The notes below the pieces were generated by a model. The model had not been told where the DNA came from. It searched no databases and saw only the letters and a program-made list of their open reading frames with translations. Positions 39,340 through 57,581 of a stretch of DNA of 64,000 bases are shown here, piece after piece (position 1 is the stretch's first letter; each line of letters begins with the position of its first letter). Position numbers and translations under genes: made by a program. Source of the DNA: an uncultured Desulfospira sp. (GTDB taxonomy: Bacteria > Desulfobacterota > Desulfobacteria > Desulfobacterales > Desulfobacteraceae). The stretch is from contig OY760175.1 in the NCBI GenBank assembly GCA_963663165.1, positions 896,001-960,000 of the forward strand, written 5' to 3'.

Positions 39340-39481
39340 GCAGGAAGCAGGGCCATACCCGCGAACCAATGGCAGACATGGCCCGCTCCCTGCATGGACC
39401 TAAAATGTGAAAATAAATGCTGAAGGTCGGGTATCCTTAGAACAGTGCACCCGGTCTGCGGTCTCCCGTCTGCGGTCTGCC
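39340..39481 (+). repeat. Composite REP-doublet element, copy 1
   Basis: Aligns with 57649-57795 and 61319-61461. Confidence 0.7.
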
Positions 39482-40585
39482 TTTATAACTGTCAAATCCC
39501 TCCCAAACGCGTTGTCCGGTATATGCCACCGGGTCTTCCGTCCCGCTGATCACCCGTAACACCCCCAAGGCCAGGGCCTCCATCTCAAGTTCCCCGGGGT
39601 AAATATCCACCGGGGCAATAAAGGCCACCATCCGGGTGAGTTCTTCGATAAAATAACTGTCCCGGCTGATTCCCCCGGTGAGGACGATGGCGTCCACCTT
39701 TCCTTCAAGGACTGTGGCATAGGCGCCAATGCTTTTTGCCACCTGGTAGATCATGGCATCGTATACCAGTTTGGCATACCGGTCCCCTTTGGCGATCCGT
39801 TGTTTGACCTCCAGAACCTCGCTGGTTCCCAGGTGATTGACCAGTCCACCGTTCTTCATGAACAGCTCTTTGACCTTGCGTTCACTGTATTGCCCTGAAA
39901 AACAAAGGCTGATCAGTTTTGATGGCGGGACCACACCGGCCCGGGTCGGCGCCATGGGGGCTTCCCCGTAAAGCAGGTTATCGGCATCCACCACCCGTCC
40001 TTTTTTATGGGCCGCAACCGATACGCCCCCGCCGATGTGGGCCACCACCAGGTTAACATCGGTATAAGGTTTGCCCATTTTAGCCGCCGCCCGCAGGCCG
40101 ACTTCCTTGTGGCTTAGGGCATGAAAGCTGCTGGATCGGGGCAGATCGGCAATCCCGCTCACCCGGGCCACGGGCTCTAACTCATCCACATCAGGCGGAT
40201 TGACCACAAAGGCGGGCTTGTCGTAAGCCATGGAAAGATCATGGGCCAGCAAAGGGCCTAAGGCGGCCGGGTGAATGGGCCGGGACCGGGCATGGTCGAG
40301 CATGAGGTCATTGACCGGGTAGGTTCCCCCGGAACAGGGGTCCAAGCCCCCTGCCCGGCCCACAAAGGCGGTGAAGGTTCTCAAATCGTATCCTTGTTCA
40401 TCCATGGCTTTGATGATCATCTGTTTTCGATAATCGAACTGATCGCTTAACTGTTTGAACCGGGCCAGCCTTTCCGCCTCATGGGTAATATCAAGGCCAT
40501 AAACCTTGTCCTCATTTTCAAAGACGGCAATTTTGGTGGATGTGGAGCCGGGGTTAATGGCCAGGATCCGTATGATTTCCATCAT
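39437..40585 (-). CDS. buk: Butyrate kinase
   Basis: ILAINPGSTSTKIA; VDEL; HAL; VAHIGGGVSV; LTGG; PGE.EMEALA. Confidence 0.93.
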   Translation of the reverse strand: MMEIIRILAINPGSTSTKIAVFENEDKVYGLDITHEAERLARFKQLSDQFDYRKQMIIKAMDEQGYDLRTFTAFVGRAGGLDPCSGGTYPVNDLMLDHARSRPIHPAALGPLLAHDLSMAYDKPAFVVNPPDVDELEPVARVSGIADLPRSSSFHALSHKEVGLRAAAKMGKPYTDVNLVVAHIGGGVSVAAHKKGRVVDADNLLYGEAPMAPTRAGVVPPSKLISLCFSGQYSERKVKELFMKNGGLVNHLGTSEVLEVKQRIAKGDRYAKLVYDAMIYQVAKSIGAYATVLEGKVDAIVLTGGISRDSYFIEELTRMVAFIAPVDIYPGELEMEALALGVLRVISGTEDPVAYTGQRVWEGFDSYKGRPQTGDRRPGALF

Positions 40586-40587
40586 GA

Positions 40588-41529
40588 TCAGCCTGCCTTT
40601 CCGGTAGCCGGGCAAGTTCCCGGCCCCGATTTATTGATGGATGCCGCCAGCAGAATCGAATTATATTTCTCTTCTGTAGGGCCCGATCTCGACGTTACAA
40701 TCATGGGGACCTTGGCGCCGACAATAATGGTGCCGGCAACGGATTTAGCACTGAATACCAGGCTTTTGGCCAGTGTATTGCCAACGGTAATATTGGGACA
40801 CAAAAGGATATCTGCCTCCCCGGCCACAGGGCTTGAATACCCTTTGATCAGGGCAGATTCCTTATCGACAGCAAGATCATAGGGCATGGGGCCTTCAACC
40901 GTACAGTCGGGTATCTCCCCGGCCTCACCCATTTTTTTAAGTTCCCCGGCCTCCACTGATTCGGGCATTTTAGGGTTCACGCGGTCTACGGCAGATAGAA
41001 CAGCAGCCTTAATGTCGGTGAACCCCATGCTTTTTAAAGCGCCGCTGGCATTGAGCAGCAGCTGTTTTTTTTGTTCCAGGGTCGGGTAGGGGACCATGGC
41101 CACATCTGTAATGGTCAACAGTTTATGATAGGTGGGAATCTTCAAAATAAGGATGTGGGAAATCAGCTTGCCGGTCCGCAGATCATTTTTTTTGTCGATG
41201 ACCATATTCATGAAGTCAGCGGTCTGAAGATGCCCCTTCATCATGACATCGATGTCACCTTTGCGGGCCAGATCAACGGTAATATTCAAGGCGGCATCCA
41301 TGTCTTTGGCATGCAGGATAGTGTATTCACAATAATCCTTATAAGCGCTTAAATTTTCGTTTATCTTTTGCTTGTCGCCAATCAGGACGGGATGGGCAAT
41401 ACCGTCCCTGCCCGCAGACATGGCGGCTTTTAAAGCATGGGCATCCTGGGCACAGACAACCGCGACATTTTTCTTGGTCGCGTTGAGGATATTGGCTTCA
41501 ATGAGCGTGCTAAAATCAGTGTAGACCAT
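40588..41529 (-). CDS. ptb: Phosphate butyryltransferase
   Basis: MMKG..QTA; VEGP..DLA; ADILL.PNI..GN; GAKVP..VTSR. Confidence 0.9.
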   Translation of the reverse strand: MVYTDFSTLIEANILNATKKNVAVVCAQDAHALKAAMSAGRDGIAHPVLIGDKQKINENLSAYKDYCEYTILHAKDMDAALNITVDLARKGDIDVMMKGHLQTADFMNMVIDKKNDLRTGKLISHILILKIPTYHKLLTITDVAMVPYPTLEQKKQLLLNASGALKSMGFTDIKAAVLSAVDRVNPKMPESVEAGELKKMGEAGEIPDCTVEGPMPYDLAVDKESALIKGYSSPVAGEADILLCPNITVGNTLAKSLVFSAKSVAGTIIVGAKVPMIVTSRSGPTEEKYNSILLAASINKSGPGTCPATGKAG

Positions 41530-41570
41530 TTTGACTTAAGACCCCCCCCCTTTTTTTATGAAAAAAACTG

Positions 41571-41628
41571 TTGACAAAGATTATCAAGGCATATATCACA
41601 AAAATAAAGCGAGCGCTCTATTTATTTT
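41571..41628 (+). promoter_or_regulatory. Sigma-70 promoter with overlapping palindromic operator
   Basis: TTGACA-N17-TATCAC followed by AAAATAAAGCGAGCGCTCTATTTATTTT. Confidence 0.6.
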
Positions 41629-41760
41629 AAAAAATTTTACACCGGCCAAAAAAATTAATTACCGCAACCTGGAAGCCAACTTTAAACATGAACCATTTAA
41701 CATCCCCCCATTTAAATTTGTCTATAAGGAAATTTGACACTTAAATTATGGAGAGAAATT

Positions 41761-43326
41761 ATGACCATAGGCACCTACGAAGAATACAAAAATAGACTGC
41801 TCAAAATGAAGCCCAATGTCTACTTAAACGGCAAAAAGGTGGACCGTTCCGGCGACTGGATCGATGGGGGGTGTTATGTAATGAAGCAAACCTATGATTT
41901 TGCCCACAACCCGGAGTATGAAGATGTCTGCACGGCCACATCCCATCTGACCGGCAAAAAAATCAACCGGTTCACCCATATTCACAGGTCCCAGGACGAT
42001 CTGCTTAAAAAACAGCTCATGACCCGGCTGCTCTGCCACCGGGTGGGCGGCTGTATCCAGCGCTGCATGGGGACCGATGCCTTGAACGCCCTGGCGGTTG
42101 TTACCTATGATTTAGACCAGGCCTGCGGGACCAGTTATCACGAACGCTTCAATAAGTATCTGCTCTATTCCCAGGAAAACGACCTGGTGGCCAACTGTGC
42201 CCAGACCGATGTCAAGGGGTCCAGAAATCCCAAGTACAAAAGGGCCCATATGCAGCCGGACCCGGACCAGTTTGTCCATATCGTCAAAACCGATGTGGAC
42301 GGTATCGGCATTGACGGCCAGCCCTGTAAGGGGATCATTGTCCGGGGCGCCAAAATCTGCAACTCCAATGCGCCTTATGTGGATGAAATCATTGTCACCC
42401 CCACCAAATTTATGGGACAAGGGGATGAGGCTTATGCGGTCTCCTTTGCCCTGCCCGCGGACTGGGACAATGTCAAACTCATGGCCCTGCCCGGCCGGCA
42501 TCACCGAAGAAAACATTTAAAAGCCCCCTTTGCCGAAGTCGGGGATGTGGAATCTTTGACCATTTTCGATGACACCTTTGTTCCTGAAGAACGGGTGTTT
42601 TTGAATGGTTACGACCATCCTGACGCATTTCAGTATGCCGGCTATCTGGCCTTGATGTTCGCCCACTTTCACCGTCACTCTTACACCGGGTGCAAGACCG
42701 CCGTCTCAGAAGTCATCGCGGCCCAGGCCGCCCTGGTGGCCGATGTCAATGATATTGCCAAACAGCATCATGTCAGGGATAAGCTGTGTGATATCATCAG
42801 CACGGCAGAACTTGTATTTGCTGCGGGCCAGGCCTCTGCCCTGCGGGCCGAAGAGTTTCCCAACGGGTCCTTTGTTCCCGATGAAATTTTGACCAATGCC
42901 GGCAGAAAACTGGCCGGTCAGAAAATTTACCATGAATATGAGACATTAGCCGACTTAACCGGCGGGGTCTGCGCCTCTCTGCCCACGGAAGAATCCTTTT
43001 ATGATCCCGAGACGGCAGAACTTTGCAATAAATATATTGTCAGAAATCCCGACTACACCCCGGAAGAAACCCACCGGGTCATGCGCATGATGGAAAACAA
43101 ATTGTGTGATGCCTTTGAAGGGGCCCAGGCCGTGGCCGGTGTCCATGGGGGCGGCTCTCCGCTGATGGAGACCATCACCATGATGAGCCGGTATGACCTG
43201 GAACCCTTAAAAAATATTGCCAAATTCCTGGCAGGCTTTGAAGGGGTCAAACTGCCCCGTTACGAACGCAAAACAGCCACGCCAAGAGCCATGCTGGACC
43301 GGTTTAAAAAAACAAAACAACCATAA
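41761..43326 (+). CDS. 4-hydroxybutyryl-CoA dehydratase-like FAD/Fe-S protein (AbfD/HpaB fold)
   Basis: GGCIQRCMG.DA.NA; TDVKG.R; VRGAK; HRHSYTGCK; HGGGSP. Confidence 0.85.
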   Translation: MTIGTYEEYKNRLLKMKPNVYLNGKKVDRSGDWIDGGCYVMKQTYDFAHNPEYEDVCTATSHLTGKKINRFTHIHRSQDDLLKKQLMTRLLCHRVGGCIQRCMGTDALNALAVVTYDLDQACGTSYHERFNKYLLYSQENDLVANCAQTDVKGSRNPKYKRAHMQPDPDQFVHIVKTDVDGIGIDGQPCKGIIVRGAKICNSNAPYVDEIIVTPTKFMGQGDEAYAVSFALPADWDNVKLMALPGRHHRRKHLKAPFAEVGDVESLTIFDDTFVPEERVFLNGYDHPDAFQYAGYLALMFAHFHRHSYTGCKTAVSEVIAAQAALVADVNDIAKQHHVRDKLCDIISTAELVFAAGQASALRAEEFPNGSFVPDEILTNAGRKLAGQKIYHEYETLADLTGGVCASLPTEESFYDPETAELCNKYIVRNPDYTPEETHRVMRMMENKLCDAFEGAQAVAGVHGGGSPLMETITMMSRYDLEPLKNIAKFLAGFEGVKLPRYERKTATPRAMLDRFKKTKQP

Positions 43327-43345
43327 CAAAGGAACCCTGTGCTAA

Positions 43346-43870
43346 ATGATCAAAAAATTTAATAAAATTTTATTTGCCACCGACCTGTCCGTCAATTGTA
43401 AATACGCTTTTACCTATGCCACGAGCCTGGCGGTCCACTATGACGGGGGCATCACCTTGCTCCATGTCATGGAAGATATCCAGGATTCTCTGGATTCCCG
43501 GCTCAAAGCCATGCTCGGCCAGGAAAAATGGGATATGATACAGCAAAAGCAAAAACATGACACAAGGTCCATTCTCATTGGCAAAAAAAGTGAACTAAAG
43601 CAGATCCGGGAGGCCCTGACCACTTTTTCTGAAGGGGATCCAGCTGTCAAAGGCCGGTTTGCCGTTGAAAACATTCTGGTTAAATCAGGCCAAATCGTCG
43701 ACACCATAATTGAAACAGCCAGTGAAGAAAACTGTGACCTGATTGTCATCGGGTCCAATAAAACCCTGTTTTCAGACTCTGTTTCTTTAGGCAACCGGGC
43801 CAAATCCCTTTTTAAACGTTCAAAAATTCCCATCTTGATGGTGCCGCCCCTGCCGTCTGATGAAGAATAA
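43346..43870 (+). CDS. Universal stress protein
   Basis: KILFATDLS; ITLLHV; CDLIVIGS; PILMVP. Confidence 0.9.
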   Translation: MIKKFNKILFATDLSVNCKYAFTYATSLAVHYDGGITLLHVMEDIQDSLDSRLKAMLGQEKWDMIQQKQKHDTRSILIGKKSELKQIREALTTFSEGDPAVKGRFAVENILVKSGQIVDTIIETASEENCDLIVIGSNKTLFSDSVSLGNRAKSLFKRSKIPILMVPPLPSDEE

Positions 43871-43883
43871 AAGGAAATATAAA

Positions 43884-44660
43884 ATGACACTAACCGATAA
43901 AGTAGCCATTGTCACCGGTGCCAGCCGGGGCATCGGAAAGGCCATCTGCTTAGGGCTTGCCAGAGAAGGGGCCAGCGTGGTGGTGGTCGCCCGCAGCGAT
44001 CAGGTCAAAGACGAACGCTTTCCCGGGACCATCCATGAGACGGTGGAGCAGATCACTTCCCTTGGGGCAAAGGCCATTGCCGTCAAGTGCGACGTCACCA
44101 AAGAAGAGAGCGTCAACCAGATGATGGACAAGGCCATTGAGGCATTCGGAAAGGTGGACATCCTGGTGAACAACGCCGGTGTGGCCTTTTACTACCCCGT
44201 GGTTGAAACGCCTTTAAAGCGGTGGGATCTGGTTTTGGATGTCAACCTTAAGGGGACCTTTCTGTGCACCAAAGCGGTGCTGCCCCAGATGATGGACCGA
44301 AAAAGCGGCTCCATTATCAACATCTCCTCCCTGGCGGCCGACGAACGGGACGAGGGCACGGTTCCCACAGGGCTTGCCTACAGTGTGGCCAAGGCCGGGG
44401 TGGACCGGTTCACCTATGGGCTTGCCACGGAAGTGGGCAAATACAATATTGCCGTCAACTGCATCAAACCCAAAAATGTGGTCCGGACCGAGGGCATGGA
44501 ATACTGGATGCCCAAAGAGGCCCAGGGCAACTGGGAATCACCGGACCGGATGGTCAAATGCGCCGTATTTTTAGCGGCCATGGATGCCGGCCGGGTCACG
44601 GGCACGGTTGCCACCGACATTGAGCTGTGCGGATGGCACGGCCTGGACCAGGGAGCATAA
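43884..44660 (+). CDS. Short-chain dehydrogenase/reductase
   Basis: TGASRGIG; NNAG; NISS; YSVAK. Confidence 0.93.
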   Translation: MTLTDKVAIVTGASRGIGKAICLGLAREGASVVVVARSDQVKDERFPGTIHETVEQITSLGAKAIAVKCDVTKEESVNQMMDKAIEAFGKVDILVNNAGVAFYYPVVETPLKRWDLVLDVNLKGTFLCTKAVLPQMMDRKSGSIINISSLAADERDEGTVPTGLAYSVAKAGVDRFTYGLATEVGKYNIAVNCIKPKNVVRTEGMEYWMPKEAQGNWESPDRMVKCAVFLAAMDAGRVTGTVATDIELCGWHGLDQGA

Positions 44661-44661
44661 C

Positions 44662-45495
44662 ATGGAGATCAAACGGGTGGGAATCGTGGGATGCGGCATC
44701 ATGGGATCGGGCATTGCACTGCTCTGTGCCCAGAAAGGCTTTGATGTCTGTATCATGGAGCAAAATGAGGCGTTTCTTGAAAAAGGGCTGGCCGCCATTG
44801 AAAGACAGCTGCCAAAGGATGCGGATACCGCACAGATACTGGACCGGATTTCCGGCCGGTGCGACTTTTTATCCTTTGACACCTGCGATCTGGTCATTGA
44901 AGCGGTCACGGAAAATCTGGCATTGAAAAAACAGATTTTTGCAAAGCTCGATGATATCTGCCCGGACCATGCCATTTTAACCTCCAATACATCGGTGCTG
45001 CCGGTCATTGAAATGGCCTCTGCCACGGGAAGGCCCCATAAGGTCATGGGCACCCACTTTCTGACCCCGCCCCAGATTATCCCGCTGCTGGAGATTGTCC
45101 AGACCCTGGCCACGGGCACCGAGGAACTTGAAACCATGCGCCGGTTCGGTGAGGCCCTGGGCAAAAAGGTGGTGGTGTCAAAGGACCGGCCCGGGTTTAT
45201 CGTCAACCGGATTCTCACCCCTATCCTTTTAAATGCCGTCCGCCTCCATGAAGAGGGCACCGGCAGCATGGAAGATATTGAAACCGCCGTAAAAGACGGC
45301 CTTGGCCTTCCCATGGGGCCGTTTAAATTATTGGACCTTATCGGCCTGGATACCATCCAGAAGGGCACCACGGCCATGTATAACGAGCTTAACGACCCCC
45401 AGTACGCCTGCCCGGTCACCATCAACCGCATGGTCTCTGCCGGCTGGCTGGGACGAAAATCCGGTAAAGGGTTTTACGAATACCGCAGGAAATGA
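44662..45495 (+). CDS. 3-hydroxyacyl-CoA dehydrogenase
   Basis: GCGIMGSGIA; EAV.E; SNTS; HF..P; GFIVNR; PMGP; LGRKSGKGFY. Confidence 0.93.
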   Translation: MEIKRVGIVGCGIMGSGIALLCAQKGFDVCIMEQNEAFLEKGLAAIERQLPKDADTAQILDRISGRCDFLSFDTCDLVIEAVTENLALKKQIFAKLDDICPDHAILTSNTSVLPVIEMASATGRPHKVMGTHFLTPPQIIPLLEIVQTLATGTEELETMRRFGEALGKKVVVSKDRPGFIVNRILTPILLNAVRLHEEGTGSMEDIETAVKDGLGLPMGPFKLLDLIGLDTIQKGTTAMYNELNDPQYACPVTINRMVSAGWLGRKSGKGFYEYRRK

Positions 45496-45504
45496 TGAAG
45501 ATAA

Positions 45505-46170
45505 ATGAGTGATAAAAAACAGACCTTTTTAGACCGATGGGACGAACATGTTCACCGGTTGATCAATGTTACGGCCAAAAAGGCCGATGCCGTTGATGTA
45601 AAGCACCAGCAGATTGTTGAAGGGGCCTGCCAGGTCTTTTTTGAAAAGGGGTTCCACCCTGCCTCCATCCGGGAGATTGCCAAAGCCAGCGGCATGTCCA
45701 TGGGGCAGATGTACCACTACATCTCATCAAAGGATGATGTGCTGTTTCTCATTCACCGGCATTCCCAGATTATCTGGCATAAGCATTTGACCGACGCCAA
45801 ACTGGATGCCTGTGAAAACCCGGTCAAAAAAATGGAGAAGGCCCTGAAAAAATCCATCGAGTTTCTCTTTGACCATAAGGACCTGTTCCAGCTGATCTAT
45901 ACCGAGAGCAAGTACTTAAGTTCCGAACACCTCAAGGTGGTGCTGGAAATGGATGAAAAAAATGTCACCGGGTTCTGGTGTGATCTGGTGGGAGAGGTGT
46001 TTGAATACAAGGGTATACAGGAAGATGTGAAGCTTGCCGGAAACGTTCTGGCATACAATCTGGTGTTTGTGGCCTTACGGGGCTGGAACTTAAAAGACAA
46101 ACCCAAACAGCAGATTATTGATTTTTTAGGGGCGTTTGTACTCAAAGGCCTGGGCCTTAACCTGTCATAA
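45505..46170 (+). CDS. TetR-family regulator
   Basis: F.EKGFH..SIREIA..SGMS.G.MYHY. Confidence 0.92.
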   Translation: MSDKKQTFLDRWDEHVHRLINVTAKKADAVDVKHQQIVEGACQVFFEKGFHPASIREIAKASGMSMGQMYHYISSKDDVLFLIHRHSQIIWHKHLTDAKLDACENPVKKMEKALKKSIEFLFDHKDLFQLIYTESKYLSSEHLKVVLEMDEKNVTGFWCDLVGEVFEYKGIQEDVKLAGNVLAYNLVFVALRGWNLKDKPKQQIIDFLGAFVLKGLGLNLS

Positions 46171-46283
46171 AATGGGTTATAGGTCGCCGGGCGCCGGCTT
46201 AAACAGCGGTGCATTAAGCAAAAATATATTGTCTATTCAATGGATTATGGAGGCTTTTCACAAAATAGAATAAAGGAAAAAAA

Positions 46284-47939
46284 ATGGGAACCCCGTTAAA
46301 CCGCGTCAGGCAACCGCTTGTTAAAACTGAGTTCGAAGTTGAAAAACCCGTATCAGAGTACATCAGGGACTGGGCACTGTTTAATCCCGAAAGAATTGCG
46401 TTGCGATATTATGGCTGGGACATGACCTATGCCGGGCTCGACGAGGCCGTCAACCGGTTTGCCAATGCCCTGATTGGCCTTGGCCTTGAAAAGGGGGATC
46501 GTGTGGCCCTGTATCTGCAGAACTGTCCGCAATTTGTCATCAGTTTCTTTGGCATCATGAGGGCGGGCGGGGTGGTGGTTTCCCTAAATCCCATGTTCAA
46601 GCAGGGGGAACTTGAATTTGAGATCAACGATGCCGGCGCGCGCATCCTGGTGGCCCATGACTATCTGTATCCTGAAGTGCTGAAAATCAAAGACAATGTG
46701 GGGCTCGAGTATGCCATTTTATGCTCTCTTTCCGACTATATCCCCCCATCCCCTGCCCTTCCCCTTCCCGATGAAGCAAAGATCGCCAAACAGCCGTTTC
46801 CGGGAACCTTTGATTTCATCCCGTTTATCAATAATGCGGCCAGCGAGCCTGTCAGCCGTATCCATGAGCTGGACGAAGAGCTGGCCCTGCTCCAATATAC
46901 CGGCGGGACCACTGGCCTTCCCAAGGGTGCCATGATTTCCCACCATACCCTTGCCTTTACCTGCCTTGGGACCATCAGCTGGTTCAAACACAGATACGGG
47001 GATGTATTTTTGGGGCTTACGCCCTTTTTTCATGTCATGGGCATGCAGCAGCTCATGTGTACGCCACTGGTGGCCGGGGCCGAACTGGTGCTCATGCCAA
47101 GGTTTGATCCCACCATCACGGCCAAAGCCATTGAAACCTATCGGGTTACCTTCTGGGTCACTGCCACCACCAGCCTGATCGCCCTGCTGGAAACCCCCGG
47201 CATTGATCAGTATGACTTTTCTTCCCTTCGAATTCTGGGAACCGGCGGAACCCCCATCTCCACCACTATCCAGGAAAAAATCCGGAATCTGTCCCCTAAA
47301 ACCCTTGTGGTGGAAGGGTATGGCTTAAGCGAGTGTACCTCCCACGGCGGATTTCAATCCCCCGTTATGTGTAAAAAGCCCGGGTTTATCGGTATTGCCC
47401 AGTTAAACAAGGTCAAGCTGGTGGATCCCAATGACGGAAAGACCCCGGTAGCCCCTGGGGAACAGGGGGAAATCCTTATCAAAGGCCCCACGGTCATGAA
47501 AGGGTATTGGAACAATCCCGAAGCCACCTGGAACACCCTAAGGGACGGATGGCTTTTTACCGGGGATCTCGGGGTCATGGACGAGGACGGATGGTTCAAC
47601 ATTGTGGGACGCAAAAAAGAGCTGATCAAATGCTCAGGCTTTTCCGTATTTCCCAGTGAAGTGGAAAACCTTCTTTATCGGAACCCGGCTGTACTCGAAG
47701 TCGCCGTCATCGGTGTTCCCGACCCATACAGGGGAGAAAGCCCCAAGGCCTTTATCATGCTCAAACCCGAGTATCGCGATGAGACCACCGAAGAAGAAAT
47801 CATTGAATGGTGCAAGGACAACATGTCAGCTTATAAACGGCCGCGGCAGGTCGCCTTTGTGGAGGATCTGCCCAAAAGTGCCGCCGGAAAGCTTTTAAGG
47901 CGTGTACTGATAGAACAAGAAGAAGCACACAATAAATGA
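46284..47939 (+). CDS. Acyl-CoA synthetase (AMP-forming)
   Basis: YTGGTTGLPKG; GYGLSE; TGD; LPKSAAGK. Confidence 0.93.
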   Translation: MGTPLNRVRQPLVKTEFEVEKPVSEYIRDWALFNPERIALRYYGWDMTYAGLDEAVNRFANALIGLGLEKGDRVALYLQNCPQFVISFFGIMRAGGVVVSLNPMFKQGELEFEINDAGARILVAHDYLYPEVLKIKDNVGLEYAILCSLSDYIPPSPALPLPDEAKIAKQPFPGTFDFIPFINNAASEPVSRIHELDEELALLQYTGGTTGLPKGAMISHHTLAFTCLGTISWFKHRYGDVFLGLTPFFHVMGMQQLMCTPLVAGAELVLMPRFDPTITAKAIETYRVTFWVTATTSLIALLETPGIDQYDFSSLRILGTGGTPISTTIQEKIRNLSPKTLVVEGYGLSECTSHGGFQSPVMCKKPGFIGIAQLNKVKLVDPNDGKTPVAPGEQGEILIKGPTVMKGYWNNPEATWNTLRDGWLFTGDLGVMDEDGWFNIVGRKKELIKCSGFSVFPSEVENLLYRNPAVLEVAVIGVPDPYRGESPKAFIMLKPEYRDETTEEEIIEWCKDNMSAYKRPRQVAFVEDLPKSAAGKLLRRVLIEQEEAHNK

Positions 47940-48206: not shown

Positions 48207-49214
48207 ATGGTTAAACGTGTGATGGTTATCTTTATAGCAGTCATTGCCGTGCTTTCGGTAAACTTTTCCGTAAGTGCAAAAACAATTACCTTGAAAATTC
48301 AGTCCCACCTGATTCCGATTGATGCGGAGCGAGGCTTAGGCCCATTCAGGGATGCGGTTGAAAAACTGTCCAACGGCGAGATCAAGATCAAAATTTTTGG
48401 CGGCAGTTCCCTTTTTCCCATGAAAGAGGTTTTGGAAGCTGTGGGAAACGGCGCTCTGGACATGGCTGAAATCGCCGAAGGATACTGGCATAAAAAAATA
48501 CCGGTCAGTGAAGTGGCGGGCATGCCCTTTGCCTTTGAGACCCTGGAAGAGGCCAACGTATTTATGTATAAAAGAGGGTATGCGGAAATGTTAAAGCAGG
48601 AATATGCCAAATTCAACGTTTATCACATCCCTTATGAGTCTTACCCCGTCGGCTTGATGACCAACAAATCCATCAACACCTTTTCCGATGTGGTCGGCTT
48701 AAAACTGCGGGCATACGGTGTTATGGCTGAATGGCTCACTGAAATGGGCGCCTCCACCACCTATATTCCGGGCGGAGAACTCTATACCGCTCTGGCCACC
48801 GGCGTGGTTGACGGGGCCCACTGGGGGGATGCCTATCCCATGTTTATCATGAAGTTCCAGGAGGTCCTTAAAAACTACATGCTGCCCGATCCCATCGTCG
48901 GGGCATGGAACAACCTGATCGTGAACATGGACACCTGGAAAAAACTGACCCCGGTCCAGCAGGCAATTATTGAAAAAGCCGCCCTGGCTCAGGGGACGCT
49001 GCATTCCGCCGACACCCTGATTCTGTCTGAAATCGCCAGAAAGGATATGAAAAAAGACTGGAAGGTCAACATCAATACCCTGTCCGACGAAGAGTTAAAA
49101 AAGATGCGGGATGCCGCCATCGTTGTCTGGGATAAAATTGCCCAGAAAGATCCCCTCAATGCCAAGGCAATCGACATGATGAAAGCGTTCCTCAAGGACA
49201 TCGGGCGCATCTAA
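48207..49214 (+). CDS. dctP: TRAP transporter substrate-binding protein
   Basis: Signal peptide; GLKLR; ELYTAL.TGVVDG. Confidence 0.92.
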   Translation: MVKRVMVIFIAVIAVLSVNFSVSAKTITLKIQSHLIPIDAERGLGPFRDAVEKLSNGEIKIKIFGGSSLFPMKEVLEAVGNGALDMAEIAEGYWHKKIPVSEVAGMPFAFETLEEANVFMYKRGYAEMLKQEYAKFNVYHIPYESYPVGLMTNKSINTFSDVVGLKLRAYGVMAEWLTEMGASTTYIPGGELYTALATGVVDGAHWGDAYPMFIMKFQEVLKNYMLPDPIVGAWNNLIVNMDTWKKLTPVQQAIIEKAALAQGTLHSADTLILSEIARKDMKKDWKVNINTLSDEELKKMRDAAIVVWDKIAQKDPLNAKAIDMMKAFLKDIGRI

Positions 49215-49263
49215 ATCAAATGGTTCAGGATGTAATTTTCAAAAACTTCAAGGGGGTGAGGCA

Positions 49264-49770
49264 ATGCTCGACAGTATTCTAAAGCTGATCGATACCATCA
49301 GTGAATGGTCCGGCAAGGCGGTCAGCATGCTTATAATTGTGTTGGCGCTGATCGTAGGGTATGAGGTGGTGGCCCGGTATGTGTTTAAAAGCCCGACTTT
49401 ATGGGCCCACGAACTTTCTGCCATGATGTTCGGCACCTTTATCATTATCGGCGGGGCCTATACCGCTTATGAAAAGCTTCATGTCAATATGGACCTGGTT
49501 CACAAATCTTTGAGTGTCCGGACAAGGGCGCTGCTGGATATGGTCACTTTTTTCATCTCCTTGACGTTTTTGGGAACCCTGATCTGGGTCGGCGGGAAAA
49601 GCGCCGTCAAATCGGTTACCATACTGGAACACGCCTCCACTCAGTGGGGGCCCCCCATCTATCCGCTCAAGGTCATGCTTCCCATAGGGGCCTTGTTACT
49701 GCTTCTTCAGATAATTGCCAAATTCATTCGTGATGTAAGGACGCTTATCAGCGGAAAGGAACAGCACTGA
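49264..49770 (+). CDS. dctQ: TRAP transporter small permease
   Basis: EVVARYVF..P..WA.E; HV.MD; four TM helices. Confidence 0.92.
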   Translation: MLDSILKLIDTISEWSGKAVSMLIIVLALIVGYEVVARYVFKSPTLWAHELSAMMFGTFIIIGGAYTAYEKLHVNMDLVHKSLSVRTRALLDMVTFFISLTFLGTLIWVGGKSAVKSVTILEHASTQWGPPIYPLKVMLPIGALLLLLQIIAKFIRDVRTLISGKEQH

Positions 49771-51083
49771 TGGAAGTCGGAACCATAACCCTTCTCATTT
49801 TCTCCTCACTGATCTTAGGCTTGTTAACCGGGCTTCCCCTGGTGTTTATTCTCGGGGGCCTGGCCGTGATTTTTAATTTCATTTTTCTGGGCCCCAGCAC
49901 GCTATTCATGATTTCGTCCACGGCCTTCGGCACCATGAACGATTTCATCTTAACCTCCATCCCCTTGTTCGTGTTCATGGGCATTCTGCTTCAGCACTCG
50001 GGCATTGCCGAAGCGTTGTTTGACATGATGCACAAATGGGTGGGCGGCATCAAGGGGGGGCTTGCCATCGGCACTATCATCATCTGTACGTTTTTTGCGG
50101 CCATGTCCGGCATCAGCGGTGCGGCCACCGTGACCATGGGGGTCATTGCCCTGCCGGCCATGCTCAAGTACAAGTATAACGTCAAACTGGCCTCGGGCAG
50201 TATTGCGGCAGGGGGGGCCCTGGGGATACTGATCCCGCCCAGCGTCCTGATGATCATCTACGGCATATTTGCCGGAGAATCCATTGGGGCACTGTTTGCC
50301 GGGGGCGTTATTCCAGGCTTTCTTCTCTCCTTGCTCTTCATTGCCTATATTGCCATTCGATGCTACTTCAATCCGGACATGGGCCCTGCCATTCCCAAAG
50401 CCGACCGGGCCGGGTGGCCGGAGAAATTTGCCGCACTCAAGGCCGTGATCCTGCCGATTCTCCTGATTACCCTGGTATTGGGCGTGATCTTTAAAGGTAT
50501 TGCCACCCCGACAGAGGCGGCGGCCATGGGGGCCTTAGGCGCCCTTTTGTGTGCGGCGGTATCCCGGAAACTGACCTGGAGCGTGTTCAAGGAATCCTCC
50601 TTTCACACCCTGGGGCTGTCCTGCATGATCATCTGGATCATCATCGGCGGCTCATGCCTGACCCGGACCTATACGGCGGTGGGGGCCGTGGATTTTATCA
50701 GAGAACTGGTCAGTGCCCTGCCCGTTTCCAAATATCTGATCCTTTTCGGTATTCAAATGACCCTGCTCTTTCTGGGCATGATTCTGGACCCCGGCGGCAT
50801 CATCATGATCTGCACCCCGGTGTTTGTGCCGGTCATTAAGAGTTTAGGGTTTGACCCTGTCTGGTTTGGTGTCCTTTTCATCGTCAACATGGAGATGTCC
50901 TACCTGACACCGCCCTTTGGGTTCAACCTGTTTTATTTAAAAAGCATTGTGCCAAGGAGTGTGACCATGCTGGACATTTACAAAGCCGTCATTCCCTTTG
51001 TGGGAATCCAGGCCCTGTGCCTGCTGCTGCTGATTTTATTTCCGCAGCTGGTCACATGGCTCCCAAGCCTCATTATTAATTAA
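49770..51083 (+). CDS. dctM: TRAP transporter large permease
   Basis: IPLF..MG; LGILIPPS; TPTEA; LTPPFG. Confidence 0.93.
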   Translation: MEVGTITLLIFSSLILGLLTGLPLVFILGGLAVIFNFIFLGPSTLFMISSTAFGTMNDFILTSIPLFVFMGILLQHSGIAEALFDMMHKWVGGIKGGLAIGTIIICTFFAAMSGISGAATVTMGVIALPAMLKYKYNVKLASGSIAAGGALGILIPPSVLMIIYGIFAGESIGALFAGGVIPGFLLSLLFIAYIAIRCYFNPDMGPAIPKADRAGWPEKFAALKAVILPILLITLVLGVIFKGIATPTEAAAMGALGALLCAAVSRKLTWSVFKESSFHTLGLSCMIIWIIIGGSCLTRTYTAVGAVDFIRELVSALPVSKYLILFGIQMTLLFLGMILDPGGIIMICTPVFVPVIKSLGFDPVWFGVLFIVNMEMSYLTPPFGFNLFYLKSIVPRSVTMLDIYKAVIPFVGIQALCLLLLILFPQLVTWLPSLIIN

Positions 51084-51181
51084 CGAACGGGATATGGGAC
51101 TTGGGATATGGGTAAACGCCGTCAGGTCCCTTCCCCAAGACCCAAGTCTCATATCCCAAGTCCCCAAACAAAGGACCGATT

Positions 51182-51952
51182 ATGAGCATAAACGTTACGG
51201 ATCAGGACAAGGGCATTCGAATTCTCACCATTGACCGGCCCCCGGTCAATGCCCTCAACGAAGAAACGGTCCAGTCTCTTCTTGACAACATGGTGGAGAG
51301 CGCATCAGATCCCGACATCCGGGTTATCATTATCACCGGGGAAGGCAAATTCTTTGTGGCCGGTGCCGATGTGGACAAACTCCTTGAAGCGGACAGCGGC
51401 AAAGCCTCTGATATTGTCCAGGGGGTCAAAGCACTCCATCAAAAGATGCGCACCGCCCCCCAACCCGTCATTGCCGCCATCAACGGTCTGGCCGCCGGCG
51501 GCGGCCTGGAACTGGCCATGGCCTGTGATATCCGCATTGCCGCAGAAAATGCCGGCATGGGGCTTCCCGAGGTGACGTTAGGGGTACTGCCCGGGGCCGG
51601 CGGCACCCAGATGCTGCCCCGGCTGATTGGTGTTGGAAAGGCCATGCAGCTGATGTTCACAGGCAGAATCATTTCATCGTCCGAAGCATTGGCATTGGGA
51701 ATCATCGATGACATCGCCTCAACCCGGACGGTTTTAGAACAGGCCGTTGACCTGGCAAAGGCCGTGATCAAAAACGCGCCCCTCTCCATTGCCCAGATCA
51801 AGGCTGCGGCCTGGGATACCCTGTCCCTTTCCCTGGAACAGGGGCTTGAAATGGAAACCAAACGGTTTGCACAGCTGTGCGATTCACAGGATAAAAACGA
51901 AGGCATCAACGCCTTCAAAGAACGGCGCAAGGCGCAATTTCAAGGTAAATAG
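51182..51952 (+). CDS. Enoyl-CoA hydratase/isomerase
   Basis: F.AGAD; GGGLELA..CD; PEV.LG..PG.GGT, with both catalytic Glu present. Confidence 0.93.
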   Translation: MSINVTDQDKGIRILTIDRPPVNALNEETVQSLLDNMVESASDPDIRVIIITGEGKFFVAGADVDKLLEADSGKASDIVQGVKALHQKMRTAPQPVIAAINGLAAGGGLELAMACDIRIAAENAGMGLPEVTLGVLPGAGGTQMLPRLIGVGKAMQLMFTGRIISSSEALALGIIDDIASTRTVLEQAVDLAKAVIKNAPLSIAQIKAAAWDTLSLSLEQGLEMETKRFAQLCDSQDKNEGINAFKERRKAQFQGK

Positions 51953-52058
51953 CTCTTAGCATTTAGTCTTTAGTTCTGGGCTCCTTTTCGTCAGCTAAAA
52001 GCTAACAGCTAACAGCCAATATCTCTTTTATCAAATTTCATACACGGGAGAAAATTTC

Positions 52059-53228
52059 ATGGACTTCAATCTAACCGACGAACAACGGGATATCAAAAAA
52101 GCGGCCAGAAAATTTGCCGAAGGCGAGTTTCCCAAAATCGCAAAAGAGTGTGACCGGGAGGAAAAAACCAGCATTGAACTCATTAAAAAAGCCAGTGACC
52201 TGGGATTTATCGGCCTGTTTATTGATGAAAAATACGGCGGGGGCGGATACGGGTTTTTGGAAAACGCCCTGGTCACTGAAGAGTTCTGGCGGGTGGACCC
52301 GGGACTTGGGGGGGCGACCCTTTGCCCCTGCTTTGGCGCTGAAATGCTGCTGCTGTTTGGCACCGAAGAACAAAAGGAAAAATACCTGATTCCCATCTGC
52401 AGCGGCGAAGCCATCAGCGCCGTGGCCGCGACAGAACCCGATGCGGGAAGCGATGTGCTGTCCGCCTCAACCACGGCTGAAAAAACAGACAAGGGATATA
52501 TCGTCAACGGGAACAAGATGTTTATTTCCAATGGCACCATTGCCGATTGCTTTGTCACCCTGTGCCTGACCCACCCGGAAGAAAGGTCCCGCCACCACCG
52601 GCACAGCGTTTTGATCATTGATGCCAAATCACCGGGGGTTGTCTGCAAAAAGCTGAAAGGAAAACTGGGCATCCGGGCCCATGAAACCGCAGAAATCATA
52701 TTTAAAGATGTTGAAGTGCCAAAGGAAAACATGATCGGCGAACCCGGAGACGGATTTAAATGCTTTATGGCGTTTTTTAACCGGTCCAGGGCTTATGTGG
52801 CGGCCCAGGGGGTCGGCATTGCCCAGGGCGCTTTGGAAATGGCCATCAACCATGTGACCCAGAGAAAACAGTTTGGGACCGCCCTGTCCGGTTTCCAGAT
52901 GGTCCAGGCCAAACTGGCTGAAATGGCCACCCTCACCGAAGCGGCCCGGAACATGGTCTATAAGGCCGCCTGGAAGCTGGACAACGGCCAGGCCGAAGAG
53001 ATGCTGGTCTCTATGGCCAAATGGTATGCCGGACAGACCGGGGTCAAGGTGGTGGATGAATCCCTTCAGCTTCACGGCGGGTACGGCTATATGGAAGATT
53101 ACGATATCAGCCGGTTTTACCGGGACGCCAAGATTGTGGAAATCTACGAAGGCAGCAAGGAGATTGAAAAGCTGATTATCGCCAAACGGCTGCTTTCCCG
53201 CAAAGGCCTGAAAGTCATGGGATGGTAA
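52059..53228 (+). CDS. Acyl-CoA dehydrogenase
   Basis: TEPDAGSD; NG.KMFISNG; R.QFG; HGGYGY; IYEG. Confidence 0.95.
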   Translation: MDFNLTDEQRDIKKAARKFAEGEFPKIAKECDREEKTSIELIKKASDLGFIGLFIDEKYGGGGYGFLENALVTEEFWRVDPGLGGATLCPCFGAEMLLLFGTEEQKEKYLIPICSGEAISAVAATEPDAGSDVLSASTTAEKTDKGYIVNGNKMFISNGTIADCFVTLCLTHPEERSRHHRHSVLIIDAKSPGVVCKKLKGKLGIRAHETAEIIFKDVEVPKENMIGEPGDGFKCFMAFFNRSRAYVAAQGVGIAQGALEMAINHVTQRKQFGTALSGFQMVQAKLAEMATLTEAARNMVYKAAWKLDNGQAEEMLVSMAKWYAGQTGVKVVDESLQLHGGYGYMEDYDISRFYRDAKIVEIYEGSKEIEKLIIAKRLLSRKGLKVMGW

Positions 53229-53319
53229 CCGATACCGATTGCCATCTTGCGCTTGTTCCAGACCATAAATTCGAGCACGGGCAAGAGCAAAAAATACCTA
53301 AATCCGACGAGGAATCCAA

Positions 53320-54513
53320 ATGATATCCAAAGAAAATGATCCGGTAATTGTATCCGCGGTAAGAACACCCATTGGCGCATTCGGCGGCGGGCTTCGACCT
53401 GTCTTACATGAACATCTGGCTGTCACCGTTTTAAAAGAGGTGTGTGACCGGGTGGATTTCCCCAAAGAATTGTTAGATGACGTATACTGGGGGGTGGTGA
53501 TGCTCAGAAGCGATGAAAACGGCCTGGCACGGGGGGCGGTTCTCAAGGCCGGTATCCCTGAGCGGGTCTCGGCGGTCCAGGTCAACCGGGCCTGCTGCTC
53601 TTCCATGGAGGCCATTCGCCTGGCGTCCATGTCCGTTCGACTAGGCGAAGGCCGGGCCCTGATTGCCGGAGGCGGAGAGAGCATGAGCAATGTCCCCTAC
53701 AGCCTTAAAAACGCCCGATGGGGCATGCCCTTTCGCCACCAGGAACTCACCGACGGGATCTGGGACGGGCTCACCGACCATCACACCGGCATTGTCATGG
53801 GGCTGACCGCCGAAAATGTGGCGGAAAAATACGAAATTTCCCGACAAGACCAGGACGAGTTTGCCTATACCAGCCAGATGCGGGCCAAAGCCGCCATGGC
53901 ATCGGGCCGGTTCAAGGACGAAATTGTCCCGGTGGTGATTCCCGGAAAACGCGGAAAACCCGACCGGGTGATCGATACCGATGAACACCCCAAGCCCGAC
54001 ACCACCTTAGAAGACCTTCAAAACCTTTCCCCGGCTTTTAAAAAGGACGGCACCGTTACAGCGGGAAATGCATCCGGGCTCAATGACGGGGCCAGCGCGG
54101 TGATTGTCTGCTCCAAATCCATTGCCGAAGAATGCGGCATGACGCGCCAGTGGCGGGTGGTGGGTTCGGCCGCAGTGGGGGTGGACCCCAGATACATGGG
54201 GATTGGCCCCATTGATGCCATCAACAAACTGCTCATGCAGACCGGCATGGCCCTTTCAGACATTGAACTGTTTGAAATCAACGAAGCCTTTGCGGCGCCC
54301 TCGGTAGCGGTGGAAAGGGCTTTGGGTTTAGACCGGGACAAAGTCAACGTCAACGGAAGCGGTATTGCCCTGGGCCACCCCATCGGCAATACCGGATGCC
54401 GCATTGTGGTCAGCCTGATTCATGAGCTTGAAAAACGCAATTTGAATGTGGGACTGGCCTCCCTTTGCGGCGGCAGCGGACACGGACAGGCCATCATTAT
54501 TGAAAGATGCTGA
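53320..54513 (+). CDS. Thiolase
   Basis: NRACCSS; NASG.NDGA; NEAFA; GHPIG; LCGG.G. Confidence 0.95.
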   Translation: MISKENDPVIVSAVRTPIGAFGGGLRPVLHEHLAVTVLKEVCDRVDFPKELLDDVYWGVVMLRSDENGLARGAVLKAGIPERVSAVQVNRACCSSMEAIRLASMSVRLGEGRALIAGGGESMSNVPYSLKNARWGMPFRHQELTDGIWDGLTDHHTGIVMGLTAENVAEKYEISRQDQDEFAYTSQMRAKAAMASGRFKDEIVPVVIPGKRGKPDRVIDTDEHPKPDTTLEDLQNLSPAFKKDGTVTAGNASGLNDGASAVIVCSKSIAEECGMTRQWRVVGSAAVGVDPRYMGIGPIDAINKLLMQTGMALSDIELFEINEAFAAPSVAVERALGLDRDKVNVNGSGIALGHPIGNTGCRIVVSLIHELEKRNLNVGLASLCGGSGHGQAIIIERC

Positions 54514-54538
54514 TATTTTTTAGCGAAAGGAAGATCAT

Positions 54539-55399
54539 ATGAGTACCATTCAAACCGTGGGAATTCTGGGGGCCGGCATCATGGGTGCTGAAATTGCCTT
54601 ATGCTTTGCCAATGCCGGCTGCAAAGTCTTATTGAAAGACATCTCCACTGAAGCGGCCCAAAAGGGAAAAGACCGCCTGTCCAAACCCTTGGACAAAGCC
54701 ATTCAAAAGGGGAAATACACCGAAGAAAAAAAAGTGGAAACCCTTGAAAAAATCGTCCCCCTTGGCGATTACCAGGGATTTGATACCGCAGATCTTGTTG
54801 TGGAGGCGGTATTTGAAAATATGGATTTAAAGAAAAAACTGCTGGTTGAAGTGGCTGACCATTGCAAAAGCGACTGCATCATTGCCACCAATACCTCTTC
54901 CATCCCCATTACCCAGCTCGGGGCCTGCCTGCCGGCAGACCGCCGTCCCCTTTTTATCGGCGCCCATTTTTTTGCCCCGGCCTTTATCATGAAGCTGGTG
55001 GAGGTAATCCCCGGGGCGGAAACCTCAGAAGAGACCACCCTGGCACTCCTTGAAGCCTGCCGGATGATCGGGAAAACCCCCATAAGGGTAAAGGATACAG
55101 CCGGATTTGTGGTCAACCGGATGCTGTTTGCTTTTTTCAATGAAGCGGTCCGGCTGGTGGATGAGGGGGTTGCCTCTATCGAGGATATTGATACAGCCTG
55201 CCGGCTGGGCTTGGGCCATCCCATAGGCCCCCTGGCATTGATGGACATGGCCGATCTTGGCATGGCCCTTGATGTGAGCAACCTGCTTAAAGAATCCTAT
55301 GGCGACCGTTTCCGGTTCGGCACGGCCCTTCGCCAGAAAGTCTATGCCGGCCATATCGGCCGCAAAGCCGGCCAGGGCTGGTACGATTACAGAAAATAA
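54539..55399 (+). CDS. 3-hydroxyacyl-CoA dehydrogenase (second copy)
   Basis: GAGIMG; EAVFE; TNTSS; HFF.P; GFVVNR. Confidence 0.93.
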   Translation: MSTIQTVGILGAGIMGAEIALCFANAGCKVLLKDISTEAAQKGKDRLSKPLDKAIQKGKYTEEKKVETLEKIVPLGDYQGFDTADLVVEAVFENMDLKKKLLVEVADHCKSDCIIATNTSSIPITQLGACLPADRRPLFIGAHFFAPAFIMKLVEVIPGAETSEETTLALLEACRMIGKTPIRVKDTAGFVVNRMLFAFFNEAVRLVDEGVASIEDIDTACRLGLGHPIGPLALMDMADLGMALDVSNLLKESYGDRFRFGTALRQKVYAGHIGRKAGQGWYDYRK

Positions 55400-55421
55400 T
55401 TAAAATCAAAAAGGGGGTGCC

Positions 55422-57086
55422 ATGGTAACAAAAATTGATTTTCAAAAACCGGGTCACCTGATCCTGATCATTGGTTTTTTTCTGCTGATCAGCCTGCCTT
55501 TAAACGGATTTTGTGAGCCGCCGATGATGCCGACGGTTGTTGAACCCGGTTACACAATTGGGTCCCTGATGCCCAAAACCCAGGTCAATGGATTTAACGG
55601 CATCGCATTTGACAGTCAGGGGAACCTCTACGGGGGGGTGGTACAGGGGTCCACCATTTACAAAATCCATAAGGAAACCGGTGCGGTCACTCCCTTTATC
55701 GGTCCCCCTGAAGGCATGGCCGATGACTTGATTTTTGAACCCGGGGGACGGGTGATCTGGACCGGTTTTTTCTTAGGCAAAATTTTTGCCAAAGGGGCCG
55801 ATGGCGCAGTGGTTACCCTGGCCGAAGGATATCCGGGTGCCAATGCCATCGCCAGAAGCCGGGACGGCCGGGTGTTCTTTACCCAGGTTTTCTTGGGGGA
55901 CGCCTTATATGAGTTGGACATTTCCGGACAAAACAAGCCTCGCAAAATTGCGGAAAAGCTTGGGGGGCTGAACGCCTTCCAGGTCCACACCGACGGGTAT
56001 ATATACGGCCCAAGATGGTTTAAAGGCGATATCATCAAAGTCAATGTGGAAACGGGGGATTATCAACCCATTGCCGATGGTTTTCAGATCCCTGCGGCCG
56101 TAAAATTTGATTCAAAGGGCAACCTGTTTGTCATTGACAACAAGGCCGGAACCTTATTAAAGGTAGATATCAACACAGGGCAAAAAAACCTGGTGGCCAC
56201 CCTGGTGCCCCACCTGGACAACCTGGCCATTGACGAACAGGACCGGGTCTTTATCAGCACCAACGGAGACGGCAGTATCTTTGAAGTGGATACGGCCACG
56301 GGCAAGGTCAGAACGGTGGTCAAAGGACGGCTTGCCTGTCCCCAGGGGATTGCGGTCTGGGACAGCCCTGAAGGAGAGATTCTGTTCGTTGCCGACAACT
56401 TTGCCTACAAAAGGGTGGACGGGTTTACCGGTGAGGTCCATGAATCCACCAAGGGCGGGGCCTTTCCCAATGCGGCCGGCATCACCGGTGACCGGGTATT
56501 GATGTCGGGCTGGTTCCGAAATGTGGTTGAGGTATTTGACGCGAAAAACGACGACCTGCTCTATTCTATTCCCGGGTTTAAAGGGTCGCTTGGGATGCTC
56601 ATGCTGGATGACGGGACCCTTCTGGTGGCTGAGGCCCAGACCGGCAGCATTATCCGGGTTAAGGATAAAGCGGGCAAACAGCGGGATGTCCTGACCAAAG
56701 ATCTTTCTCTTCCGGTCTACATGGCAAAGGCAGGTCCCGATGCCGTCTATGTAACCGAATTTTTGTCAGGAGAACTCACCAAAGTCAGCCTGAAAACCGG
56801 AGAACAAAAAGTGGTTGCTTCGGGCTTAAGAAAGCCCAAGGGAGTGGCGGTCAAAGGGGACGGAACCATTCTGGTGGTCAATTCCGGGGCCCGGGAGCTG
56901 GTTTCCATCGATCCGGACACCGGTGCGGTCAAGCCCTTTGTTCAGGACCTGCCTGTCGGCCTCTATGTCCCCGAAGGGTTTATGCCCGCGTTCACCCTCA
57001 CCGGTGTGGCGGTTTCCAGAGCAGGCAACATTTATGTGACCAGTGATATAGAAAATGTGATCTATAAAATTTGCCCCGGCAAATAG
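55422..57086 (+). CDS. Exported double beta-propeller, SMP-30/gluconolactonase-like
   Basis: N-terminal hydrophobic signal; NGIAFD..GNLY, ADDL, LDNLAID and P.G.AV repeats. Confidence 0.7.
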   Translation: MVTKIDFQKPGHLILIIGFFLLISLPLNGFCEPPMMPTVVEPGYTIGSLMPKTQVNGFNGIAFDSQGNLYGGVVQGSTIYKIHKETGAVTPFIGPPEGMADDLIFEPGGRVIWTGFFLGKIFAKGADGAVVTLAEGYPGANAIARSRDGRVFFTQVFLGDALYELDISGQNKPRKIAEKLGGLNAFQVHTDGYIYGPRWFKGDIIKVNVETGDYQPIADGFQIPAAVKFDSKGNLFVIDNKAGTLLKVDINTGQKNLVATLVPHLDNLAIDEQDRVFISTNGDGSIFEVDTATGKVRTVVKGRLACPQGIAVWDSPEGEILFVADNFAYKRVDGFTGEVHESTKGGAFPNAAGITGDRVLMSGWFRNVVEVFDAKNDDLLYSIPGFKGSLGMLMLDDGTLLVAEAQTGSIIRVKDKAGKQRDVLTKDLSLPVYMAKAGPDAVYVTEFLSGELTKVSLKTGEQKVVASGLRKPKGVAVKGDGTILVVNSGARELVSIDPDTGAVKPFVQDLPVGLYVPEGFMPAFTLTGVAVSRAGNIYVTSDIENVIYKICPGK

Positions 57087-57101
57087 GGCCTCGATTTGGC
57101 A

Positions 57102-57581
57102 ATGGTTGAACTGGAGAATATGGATACCCTCAAAGGCTTGGGCAATGCCCGTTTCGGGCCGGGGCCCTGGGTCATGCTAACCCAGGAGATGATTGACGCC
57201 TTTGCCCTTGCCACACGGGATTACCAATGGATCCATACGGATCCGGACAGGGCCGCCAAAGGGTCATGCTTTGGCAACACCACCATTGCCCATGGGTTTT
57301 TGGTTCTGTCCATGGTCTCTGCCATGCACCGGGAAACCGTGGCCATCAAAAATGTGGCCATAGGGGTGAACTACGGTCTAAACCGGGTCCGCTTCCCGAG
57401 TCCGGTACCGGTAAACAGCCGGATACGCTTGTACTGCCGCACAGGCCGAATGGAAGATATGGGTAACGGCAGCTTCAAGGTGGTCTGGAAATGTGAAGTT
57501 GAAGTGGAAAACAGCCAAAAACCGGCCTGTGTCTGTGAATTGATTACCATGATGGTCGGGAGCGCAAATATTATAACGTAA
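57102..57581 (+). CDS. MaoC-family dehydratase
   Basis: FA.AT.D.QWIH.DP; TIAHGFL; NYGLNRVRF. Confidence 0.9.
   Translation: MVELENMDTLKGLGNARFGPGPWVMLTQEMIDAFALATRDYQWIHTDPDRAAKGSCFGNTTIAHGFLVLSMVSAMHRETVAIKNVAIGVNYGLNRVRFPSPVPVNSRIRLYCRTGRMEDMGNGSFKVVWKCEVEVENSQKPACVCELITMMVGSANIIT

Follow-up and report, generated by a model that had tools for sequence, protein, structure and literature searches.

A catabolic gene block around an AbfD-family enzyme lacking Glu455 in an uncultured Desulfospira sp., and a candidate route for C4-oxygenated acids

The stretch of 64,000 nucleotides analysed here (the window), from contig OY760175.1 of an uncultured Desulfospira sp., carries a block of catabolic genes that includes a relative of AbfD, the 4-hydroxybutyryl-CoA dehydratase (Table 1). 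An earlier note on this DNA had proposed a pathway in which an exported lactonase-like propeller opens a gamma-lactone, and the resulting acid is imported, activated with CoA, dehydrated and beta-oxidised. Gene calls from a listing of open reading frames (ORFs) and from Pfam/NCBIfam profile scans of the block proteins recovered all the genes then named, at the same positions, and added a Usp gene within the block and, at its edges, a thioesterase and a nitroreductase gene. The plus-strand genes from 41761 to 57581 share their orientation and are separated by -1 to 267 nt, and the 6.74-Mb genome has one copy of the block. Buk scores above its curated cut-off and Ptb below. DctP, DctQ and DctM are all present, and in DctP, whose nearest solved relative is 2ZZV, the carboxylate-binding Arg of the KLR motif is aligned. 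The best structural relatives of the short-chain dehydrogenase/reductase (SDR) are of the (3R)-hydroxyacyl-CoA dehydrogenase/HSDL2 types, which speaks against the suggested reduction of 4-oxo acids by this protein; such an enzyme would pair with MaoC.

Table 1. Features of the block and its flanks (window positions; G001, sister genome of the same genus; L107, a propeller locus discussed in the text)
Feature	Position	Strand	Evidence or remark
Hot-dog thioesterase (4HBT_2)	38429..38851	-	Pfam PF13279 E 2e-18; syntenic in G001; downstream of buk; possibly a role in product release
Butyrate kinase Buk	39437..40585	-	TIGR02707 438 bits vs cut-off 289
Phosphate butyryltransferase-like Ptb	40588..41529	-	PF01515; NF004472 278 bits, under cut-off 399
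AT-rich palindrome of 28 bp, candidate TetR operator	41601..41628	.	Divergent promoter region
AbfD-like [4Fe-4S]/FAD enzyme, Glu455-less clade	41761..43326	+	E 5e-85 to 1U8V
Universal stress protein (Usp)	43346..43870	+	PF00582
SDR, PRK08278/HSDL2/MFE-2-dehydrogenase-like	43884..44660	+	Profile scan and structural relatives
3-hydroxyacyl-CoA dehydrogenase 1 (HBD)	44662..45495	+	PF02737+PF00725
TetR regulator	45505..46170	+	PF00440
Acyl-CoA ligase, PRK08314-like	46284..47939	+	Profile scans
TRAP transporter DctP-DctQ-DctM	48207..51083	+	Profile scans
Enoyl-CoA hydratase (crotonase)	51182..51952	+	PF00378
Acyl-CoA dehydrogenase (ACAD)	52059..53228	+	Profile scan; 77% to L107 ACAD
Thiolase	53320..54513	+	TIGR01930 above cut-off
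3-hydroxyacyl-CoA dehydrogenase 2 (HBD)	54539..55399	+	Profile scan
Tandem double six-bladed beta-propeller, likely signal peptide, accessory	55422..57086	+	AF2 pLDDT 96
MaoC-type hydratase	57096..57581	+	PF01575
Nitroreductase	57852-58529		Just beyond the block

We surveyed the residues of the AbfD-like protein in an alignment with its 120 best homologues (121 sequences), taking Clostridium aminobutyricum AbfD (1U8V) as the reference, whose numbering is used unless stated. The [4Fe-4S] ligands Cys99, Cys103, His292 and Cys299 are invariant, as is Glu257 (all 121/121), and Tyr296 is present in 120/121; in the protein's own numbering, from the upstream TTG, these are C107, C111, H313, C320, E273 and Y317. 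The positions of Arg90 and Lys300 are also retained, and the fold family is that of the AbfD structures 1U8V and 6VJR, at about 38% identity. Unlike AbfD, however, all 121 sequences have Ala in place of Glu455 (A468 in the query), which in AbfD protonates the leaving hydroxyl, together with Gly for Ala460, His for Gln294 and Cys-Asn-Ser for His188-Gln189-Thr190, the Ser (121/121) retaining the hydroxyl of Thr190. Codon differences to G001 amount to 75 synonymous vs 5 non-synonymous, and the gene is therefore under strong purifying selection.

These proteins form a tight clade (at least 68% identity) with support 1.0, whose members are 36–39% identical to canonical AbfD. Judged from the alignment, the key enzyme is no plain AbfD, from which it departs at Glu455, and what distinguishes its clade from other Glu455-less clades is the retention of everything else together with its tight conservation. 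Databases nevertheless name the clade 4-hydroxybutyryl-CoA dehydratase. We found no paper describing it, in a literature search that covered few subscription journals, and the accessible part of PMC11887813 makes no mention of AbfD; neither this paper nor PMC10516121 proved decisive. A second AbfD-family gene of the same genome (C1:5701857-5703296) belongs to a different Glu455-less clade and adjoins a thioesterase-like ORF and sensor proteins.

A genome scan for the clade yielded 214 relatives, of which the best 80 were kept, giving 69 loci that span Desulfobacterota, Sporomusa, Desulfitobacterium, spirochaetes, Oscillospiraceae, Lachnospiraceae and Actinomycetota. Cultured carriers include Sporomusa spp., Papillibacter cinnamivorans, Pseudoramibacter alactolyticus, Desulfosarcina variabilis and Enterocloster citroniae, and in gut Oscillospiraceae the clade often occurs as two paralogues between two SDRs. 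Neighbours were counted over 68 loci (omitting the sister genome), many of them on short contigs and all of them related and non-independent: an SDR was found at 39, HBD-type genes at 31, a crotonase at 25, a CoA ligase or transferase at 20, thiolase/BKACE at 17, ACAD at 14, OYE/VprA-type reductases at 14, ptb at 5 and TRAP genes at 4, and EtfAB adjoins the clade in 9/69. The ptb and buk of the window are 54–55% identical to those adjoining the same clade in four spirochaete loci, and its TetR is 38–40% identical to the TetR that neighbours the clade in Sporomusa/Desulfitobacterium loci.

Candidate ring-opening hydrolases of three folds occur at 18/68 clade loci, which lends indirect support to the lactone or oxo-acid entry proposed in the earlier note. 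PTE-family (GKL/Dr0930-type) proteins, at six loci, match the Geobacillus and Dr0930 enzymes, which are lactonases, with E values of 4e-124 and 3e-113, and their gene is single-copy and adjoins the clade in both carrier genomes among five genomes checked. The tandem propeller accounts for two loci and proteins like 6-oxocamphor/beta-diketone hydrolase for ten (E 1e-31 for one representative, a second group being linked separately). Examples of the latter crotonases, from anaerobic spirochaetes/Firmicutes, lie near BKACE, OYE and VprA-like genes (L013:1026-2018 and L065:16977-17984).

As a control, we examined the genomes of the family of one Oscillospiraceae locus, where the clade, counted at an identity of at least 68%, is present in 34/301. 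Twenty clade loci, chosen for their long contigs (one only 59% identical, several overlapping those of the scan), were compared with 20 canonical abfD loci. A clade-type SDR with crotonase and/or HBD was found at 13/20 clade loci, and that HBD at none of the 20 canonical ones, whereas a 4-hydroxybutyrate CoA-transferase-type gene was found at 14/20 canonical vs 1/20 clade loci; the clade thus has its own beta-oxidation operon in place of that transferase. The loci compared are kin, and only counts are given for them. All 20 canonical proteins have Glu455. Three genomes (G938, G945 and G988) contain both the clade and canonical AbfD.

The block is syntenic in G001, in the same order and with 87–94.5% nucleotide identity, a range similar to the 94% of gyrB, so that the block is taken as vertically inherited between the two genomes; a recent transfer was considered and dropped on the same grounds. 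The exception is maoC, whose nucleotide identity to the G001 copy is just 78%, suggesting that maoC and the adjoining propeller gene were exchanged together. The block was not found in another genome of the genus (G002), nor the SDR among 400 genomes of the order, in each of which six candidates were scored, and the clade occurs in 1/160 other genomes of the family. The propeller was found in 3/400 genomes of the phylum, and at full length in 0/60 relatives, with four weak partial matches. The block is therefore rare and patchy, and not a trait of Desulfobacterales, the order across which the earlier note had proposed to look for synteny.

Upstream of the AbfD-like gene, the 28-bp palindrome is symmetric at 12 of its 14 arm positions, a value reached by 3/1000 shuffles, is identical in G001 and, of the 16 occurrences of its 8-bp core genome-wide, has the highest score, making it a candidate TetR operator. 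It was not found in the related modules L106, L107, L092, L094 and L189 or in the Sporomusa loci. A promoter scan of 41400-41900 gave 1 site vs 1.3 expected; by eye only, a TTGACA-17-TATCAC arrangement precedes the palindrome.

The propeller was modelled with AlphaFold2 (AF2) and a 101-sequence alignment, since a single-sequence fold reached a predicted local distance difference test score (pLDDT) of 62. The alignment-based model has two six-bladed propellers (pLDDT 96), preceded by a hydrophobic N-terminal stretch, judged by eye, that is likely a signal peptide. D101, D102, N141, N184, D266 and N267, at blade starts of the N-terminal propeller, are invariant (101/101), and no such Asp/Asn set was found in the C-terminal propeller in the same alignment, so that of the two propellers just the first is likely to have a metal site. 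The six-bladed fold and the invariant Asp/Asn at blade starts are shared with the Ca2+ propeller lactonases (Rpa3624, SMP-30, Drp35 and XC5397), although these lack the tandem arrangement with signal peptide, and NHL-type non-enzymes score higher: structure searches returned NHL domains first (Z 29-30) and the lactonase Rpa3624 (8DJF) at Z 26.5, with a root-mean-square deviation of 2.4 over 238 residues. According to the accessible part of one study, Rpa3624 requires E15, N123, N172 and D229, and D229N is inactive (PMC9843451). By blade order alone, the counterpart of D229 would be Asn184 and the E-N-N-D set is out of register. Foldseek matches were generic double propellers only, a sequence search of the PDB returned mostly designed Pizza proteins, and the ESM Atlas only automatically named SGL/NHL clusters. 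Of the exported lactonase-like propeller described earlier, then, the fold stands, export rests on the hydrophobic segment, and the lactonase is putative.

In L007, L021, L107, G375 and G432 the propeller gene and an AbfD-family gene are no more than about 10 kb apart, and most of the homologues at 42–45% identity lie between an M23 peptidase gene and one that we take to be ClpB-like. L107 has an SDR fragment (79% identical), a ligase (57%), DctPQM (60/57/78%), ACAD (77%) and HBD (59%), and G375 and G432 have a matching ligase, TRAP genes and TetR; the block CoA ligase is 56–57% identical to the ligases of the three loci. Their AbfD-family neighbour is of another type, however, 29% identical, which lacks the Fe-S cysteines, carries a HAEGS motif and has Glu at the site of the acyl-CoA dehydrogenase base. 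Proteins of this type are possibly flavin-only dehydrogenases or eliminases, and no such paralogue was found in the source genome. Two HAEGS-type AbfD/HpaB-family proteins, in L107 (424-1908) and L094 (5378-6865), are 81% mutually identical and occupy the AbfD slot of a similar module. Mycofactocin-type genes (an MftF-like glycosyltransferase and a mycofactocin-coupled SDR above cut-off; L093:1-3417) lie near the propeller in G432.

Gene content and the recurrence of the module elsewhere support the more general proposal that an acid requiring AbfD-family chemistry is imported, activated with CoA and beta-oxidised. From the gene identities, residue pattern, synteny and neighbour contrast described above we infer a route, to which we give about an even chance, for the uptake and beta-oxidation of a C4-substituted 4-hydroxy or 4-oxo acid bulkier than 4-hydroxybutyrate, in which the C4 oxygen would be lost by a radical mechanism and the residue freed via Ptb/Buk or a thioesterase. 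The substrate would be a 4-hydroxy acid larger than 4-hydroxybutyrate, its 4-oxo form or, optionally, its lactone opened outside by the propeller, and TetR would control the catabolic block. DctPQM would import the acid, and after CoA activation the AbfD-like enzyme would use FAD/[4Fe-4S] radical chemistry to take off its C4 oxygen, yielding a 2-enoyl-CoA. The Glu455 to Ala and Ala460 to Gly changes may widen the pocket for the C4 substituent, and the leaving group might be protonated by another group, for which the His that replaces Gln294 and water are candidates. Crotonase/MaoC, HBD/SDR and thiolase would then release acetyl-CoA in one round of beta-oxidation, ACAD would interconvert enoyl- and acyl-CoA, and the residual acyl-CoA would yield acid and ATP by Ptb/Buk, or acid by the thioesterase. 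The levulinate pathway LvaABCDE of Pseudomonas putida shares the CoA ligase, the SDR and the entry of a 4-hydroxyacyl-CoA into beta-oxidation, but it includes the LvaAB kinase step and the block proteins hold no kinase family besides Buk; the radical AbfD-type enzyme would stand in for that phosphorylation and elimination. The 5-hydroxyvaleryl-CoA dehydratase route of Clostridium viride shares hydroxy-acid/lactone entry, flavin-dependent elimination and beta-oxidation, although its enzyme is flavin-only and may better fit the HAEGS-type protein of L107, G375 and G432.

Several observations weigh against this route. T190, E257, Y296 and E455 are given as important for AbfD dehydratase activity in the accessible part of one source (10.1101/2020.02.05.935528), so that the residue lost here is among them, and no invariant acid was found near its site in the 121-sequence alignment as a substitute. 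Glu appears in the Glu455 column in only about 9/79 full-length representatives of 50% clusters, as read off the alignment by us; its loss thus seems common across the superfamily and is by itself no sign of a bulkier substrate. In L107 the SDR, ligase, TRAP, ACAD, HBD and propeller surround a protein without Fe-S cysteines. Lactone entry is affected in particular, the lactonase site of the propeller being putative. The propeller is the sole block gene absent from G001, a homologue at 72–74% identity in G941 has no matching neighbours, and among 80 metagenome propeller loci L107 alone has the module and L106 the TetR. Ring-opening hydrolases were found at 0/20 Oscillospiraceae-family clade loci and at none of the 20 canonical ones, so this class failed to separate them in the control. 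The evidence thus does not support the propeller as the needed first step that the earlier note had made of it, and we regard it as an accessory, optional front end.

It is possible, if less than probable, that the AbfD-like protein is instead a dehydrogenase, a dienoyl-CoA-forming enzyme or a double-bond isomerase for unsaturated, branched, cyclic or 5-hydroxy acyl-CoA, within a block for auxiliary beta-oxidation with an (R)-branch of SDR and MaoC and an (S)-branch of crotonase and HBD. The missing Glu455 with no acid in its place, the exchange, within one and the same module, for the HAEGS-type protein without cysteines, the resemblance of the SDR to (3R)-hydroxyacyl-CoA dehydrogenase and the OYE/VprA-type reductases all agree with this; however, the invariant Fe-S/His/Tyr/Glu257 set exceeds the needs of simple dehydrogenation, for which the block already has an ACAD, lactonase-type neighbours occur at 8/68 loci and EtfAB is no regular neighbour.

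A radical gamma-elimination in which the C4 leaving group is an ether, thioether, amine or ester rather than water, with a cavity in place of Glu455, appears improbable. The Glu to Ala change is invariant and makes space, and some gut loci have carnitine-dehydrogenase-like, BKACE and CaiB-type neighbours, but no recurrent amine/betaine transporter or aminotransferase was found among the neighbours, and the paired SDRs on either side of the gene point to C=O/CHOH chemistry. Plain use of gamma-butyrolactone or 4-hydroxybutyrate via crotonyl-CoA is the least credible of the alternatives, and very unlikely, because Glu455 is missing and the neighbours, among which the 4-hydroxybutyrate CoA-transferase is absent, are unlike those of canonical abfD; the separate position of the clade and its coexistence with canonical AbfD in three genomes also speak against it, even though AbfD is the nearest solved structure and the database label says as much.

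Other features lie in and around the block. Two related 76-nt hairpins of GGGACTT/GGGATAT units flank the TRAP genes (47942-48025 and 51089-51164) and occur at these two sites only, genome-wide. A related TRAP system (44–59% identity; C1:157081-160010) of the same genome adjoins ORFs named by eye as CoA-ligase-like and carboxyltransferase-like. At 38988-39270 there is an element of about 270 nt with inverted ends, resembling a miniature inverted-repeat transposable element, with 4 near-full copies in the genome and many in G001, and 58630-58958 holds three copies of a 91-nt repeat with about 227 matches genome-wide. The type I restriction gene hsdR is split into two ORFs at 34202-37195 and is one long ORF in G001 (L045:2719-5913); this restriction-modification region is 97–99% identical to G001, above the gyrB value.

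A bolder extension, which we consider rather unlikely, is that the clade supplies the anaerobic radical dehydratase so far missing for secondary 4-hydroxyacyl-CoAs, which in gut Oscillospiraceae would take the C4 hydroxyl off 4-hydroxy-5-arylvaleric acids or 4-hydroxyvalerate, and that the propeller is a new type of exported lactonase with a permuted metal site. The 4-hydroxy-5-arylvaleric acids are the open forms of flavan-3-ol-derived phenyl-gamma-valerolactones. According to the accessible part of a 2026 review, several steps around these lactones are enzymatically unassigned and enantiomeric hydroxyvaleric acids arise (PMC13515148). Paired SDRs and paralogues would fit such enantiomers, the tie between clade and compounds being ours only.

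AbfD chemistry has been worked out for a single substrate, and in automatic annotation genes of this kind serve to mark 4-hydroxybutyrate metabolism or carbon fixation; the clade is so labelled, yet one catalytic residue and the gene context are different. It is tightly conserved over several phyla, about one in ten of the sampled Oscillospiraceae-family genomes carry it, and its cultured carriers make the reaction directly testable.

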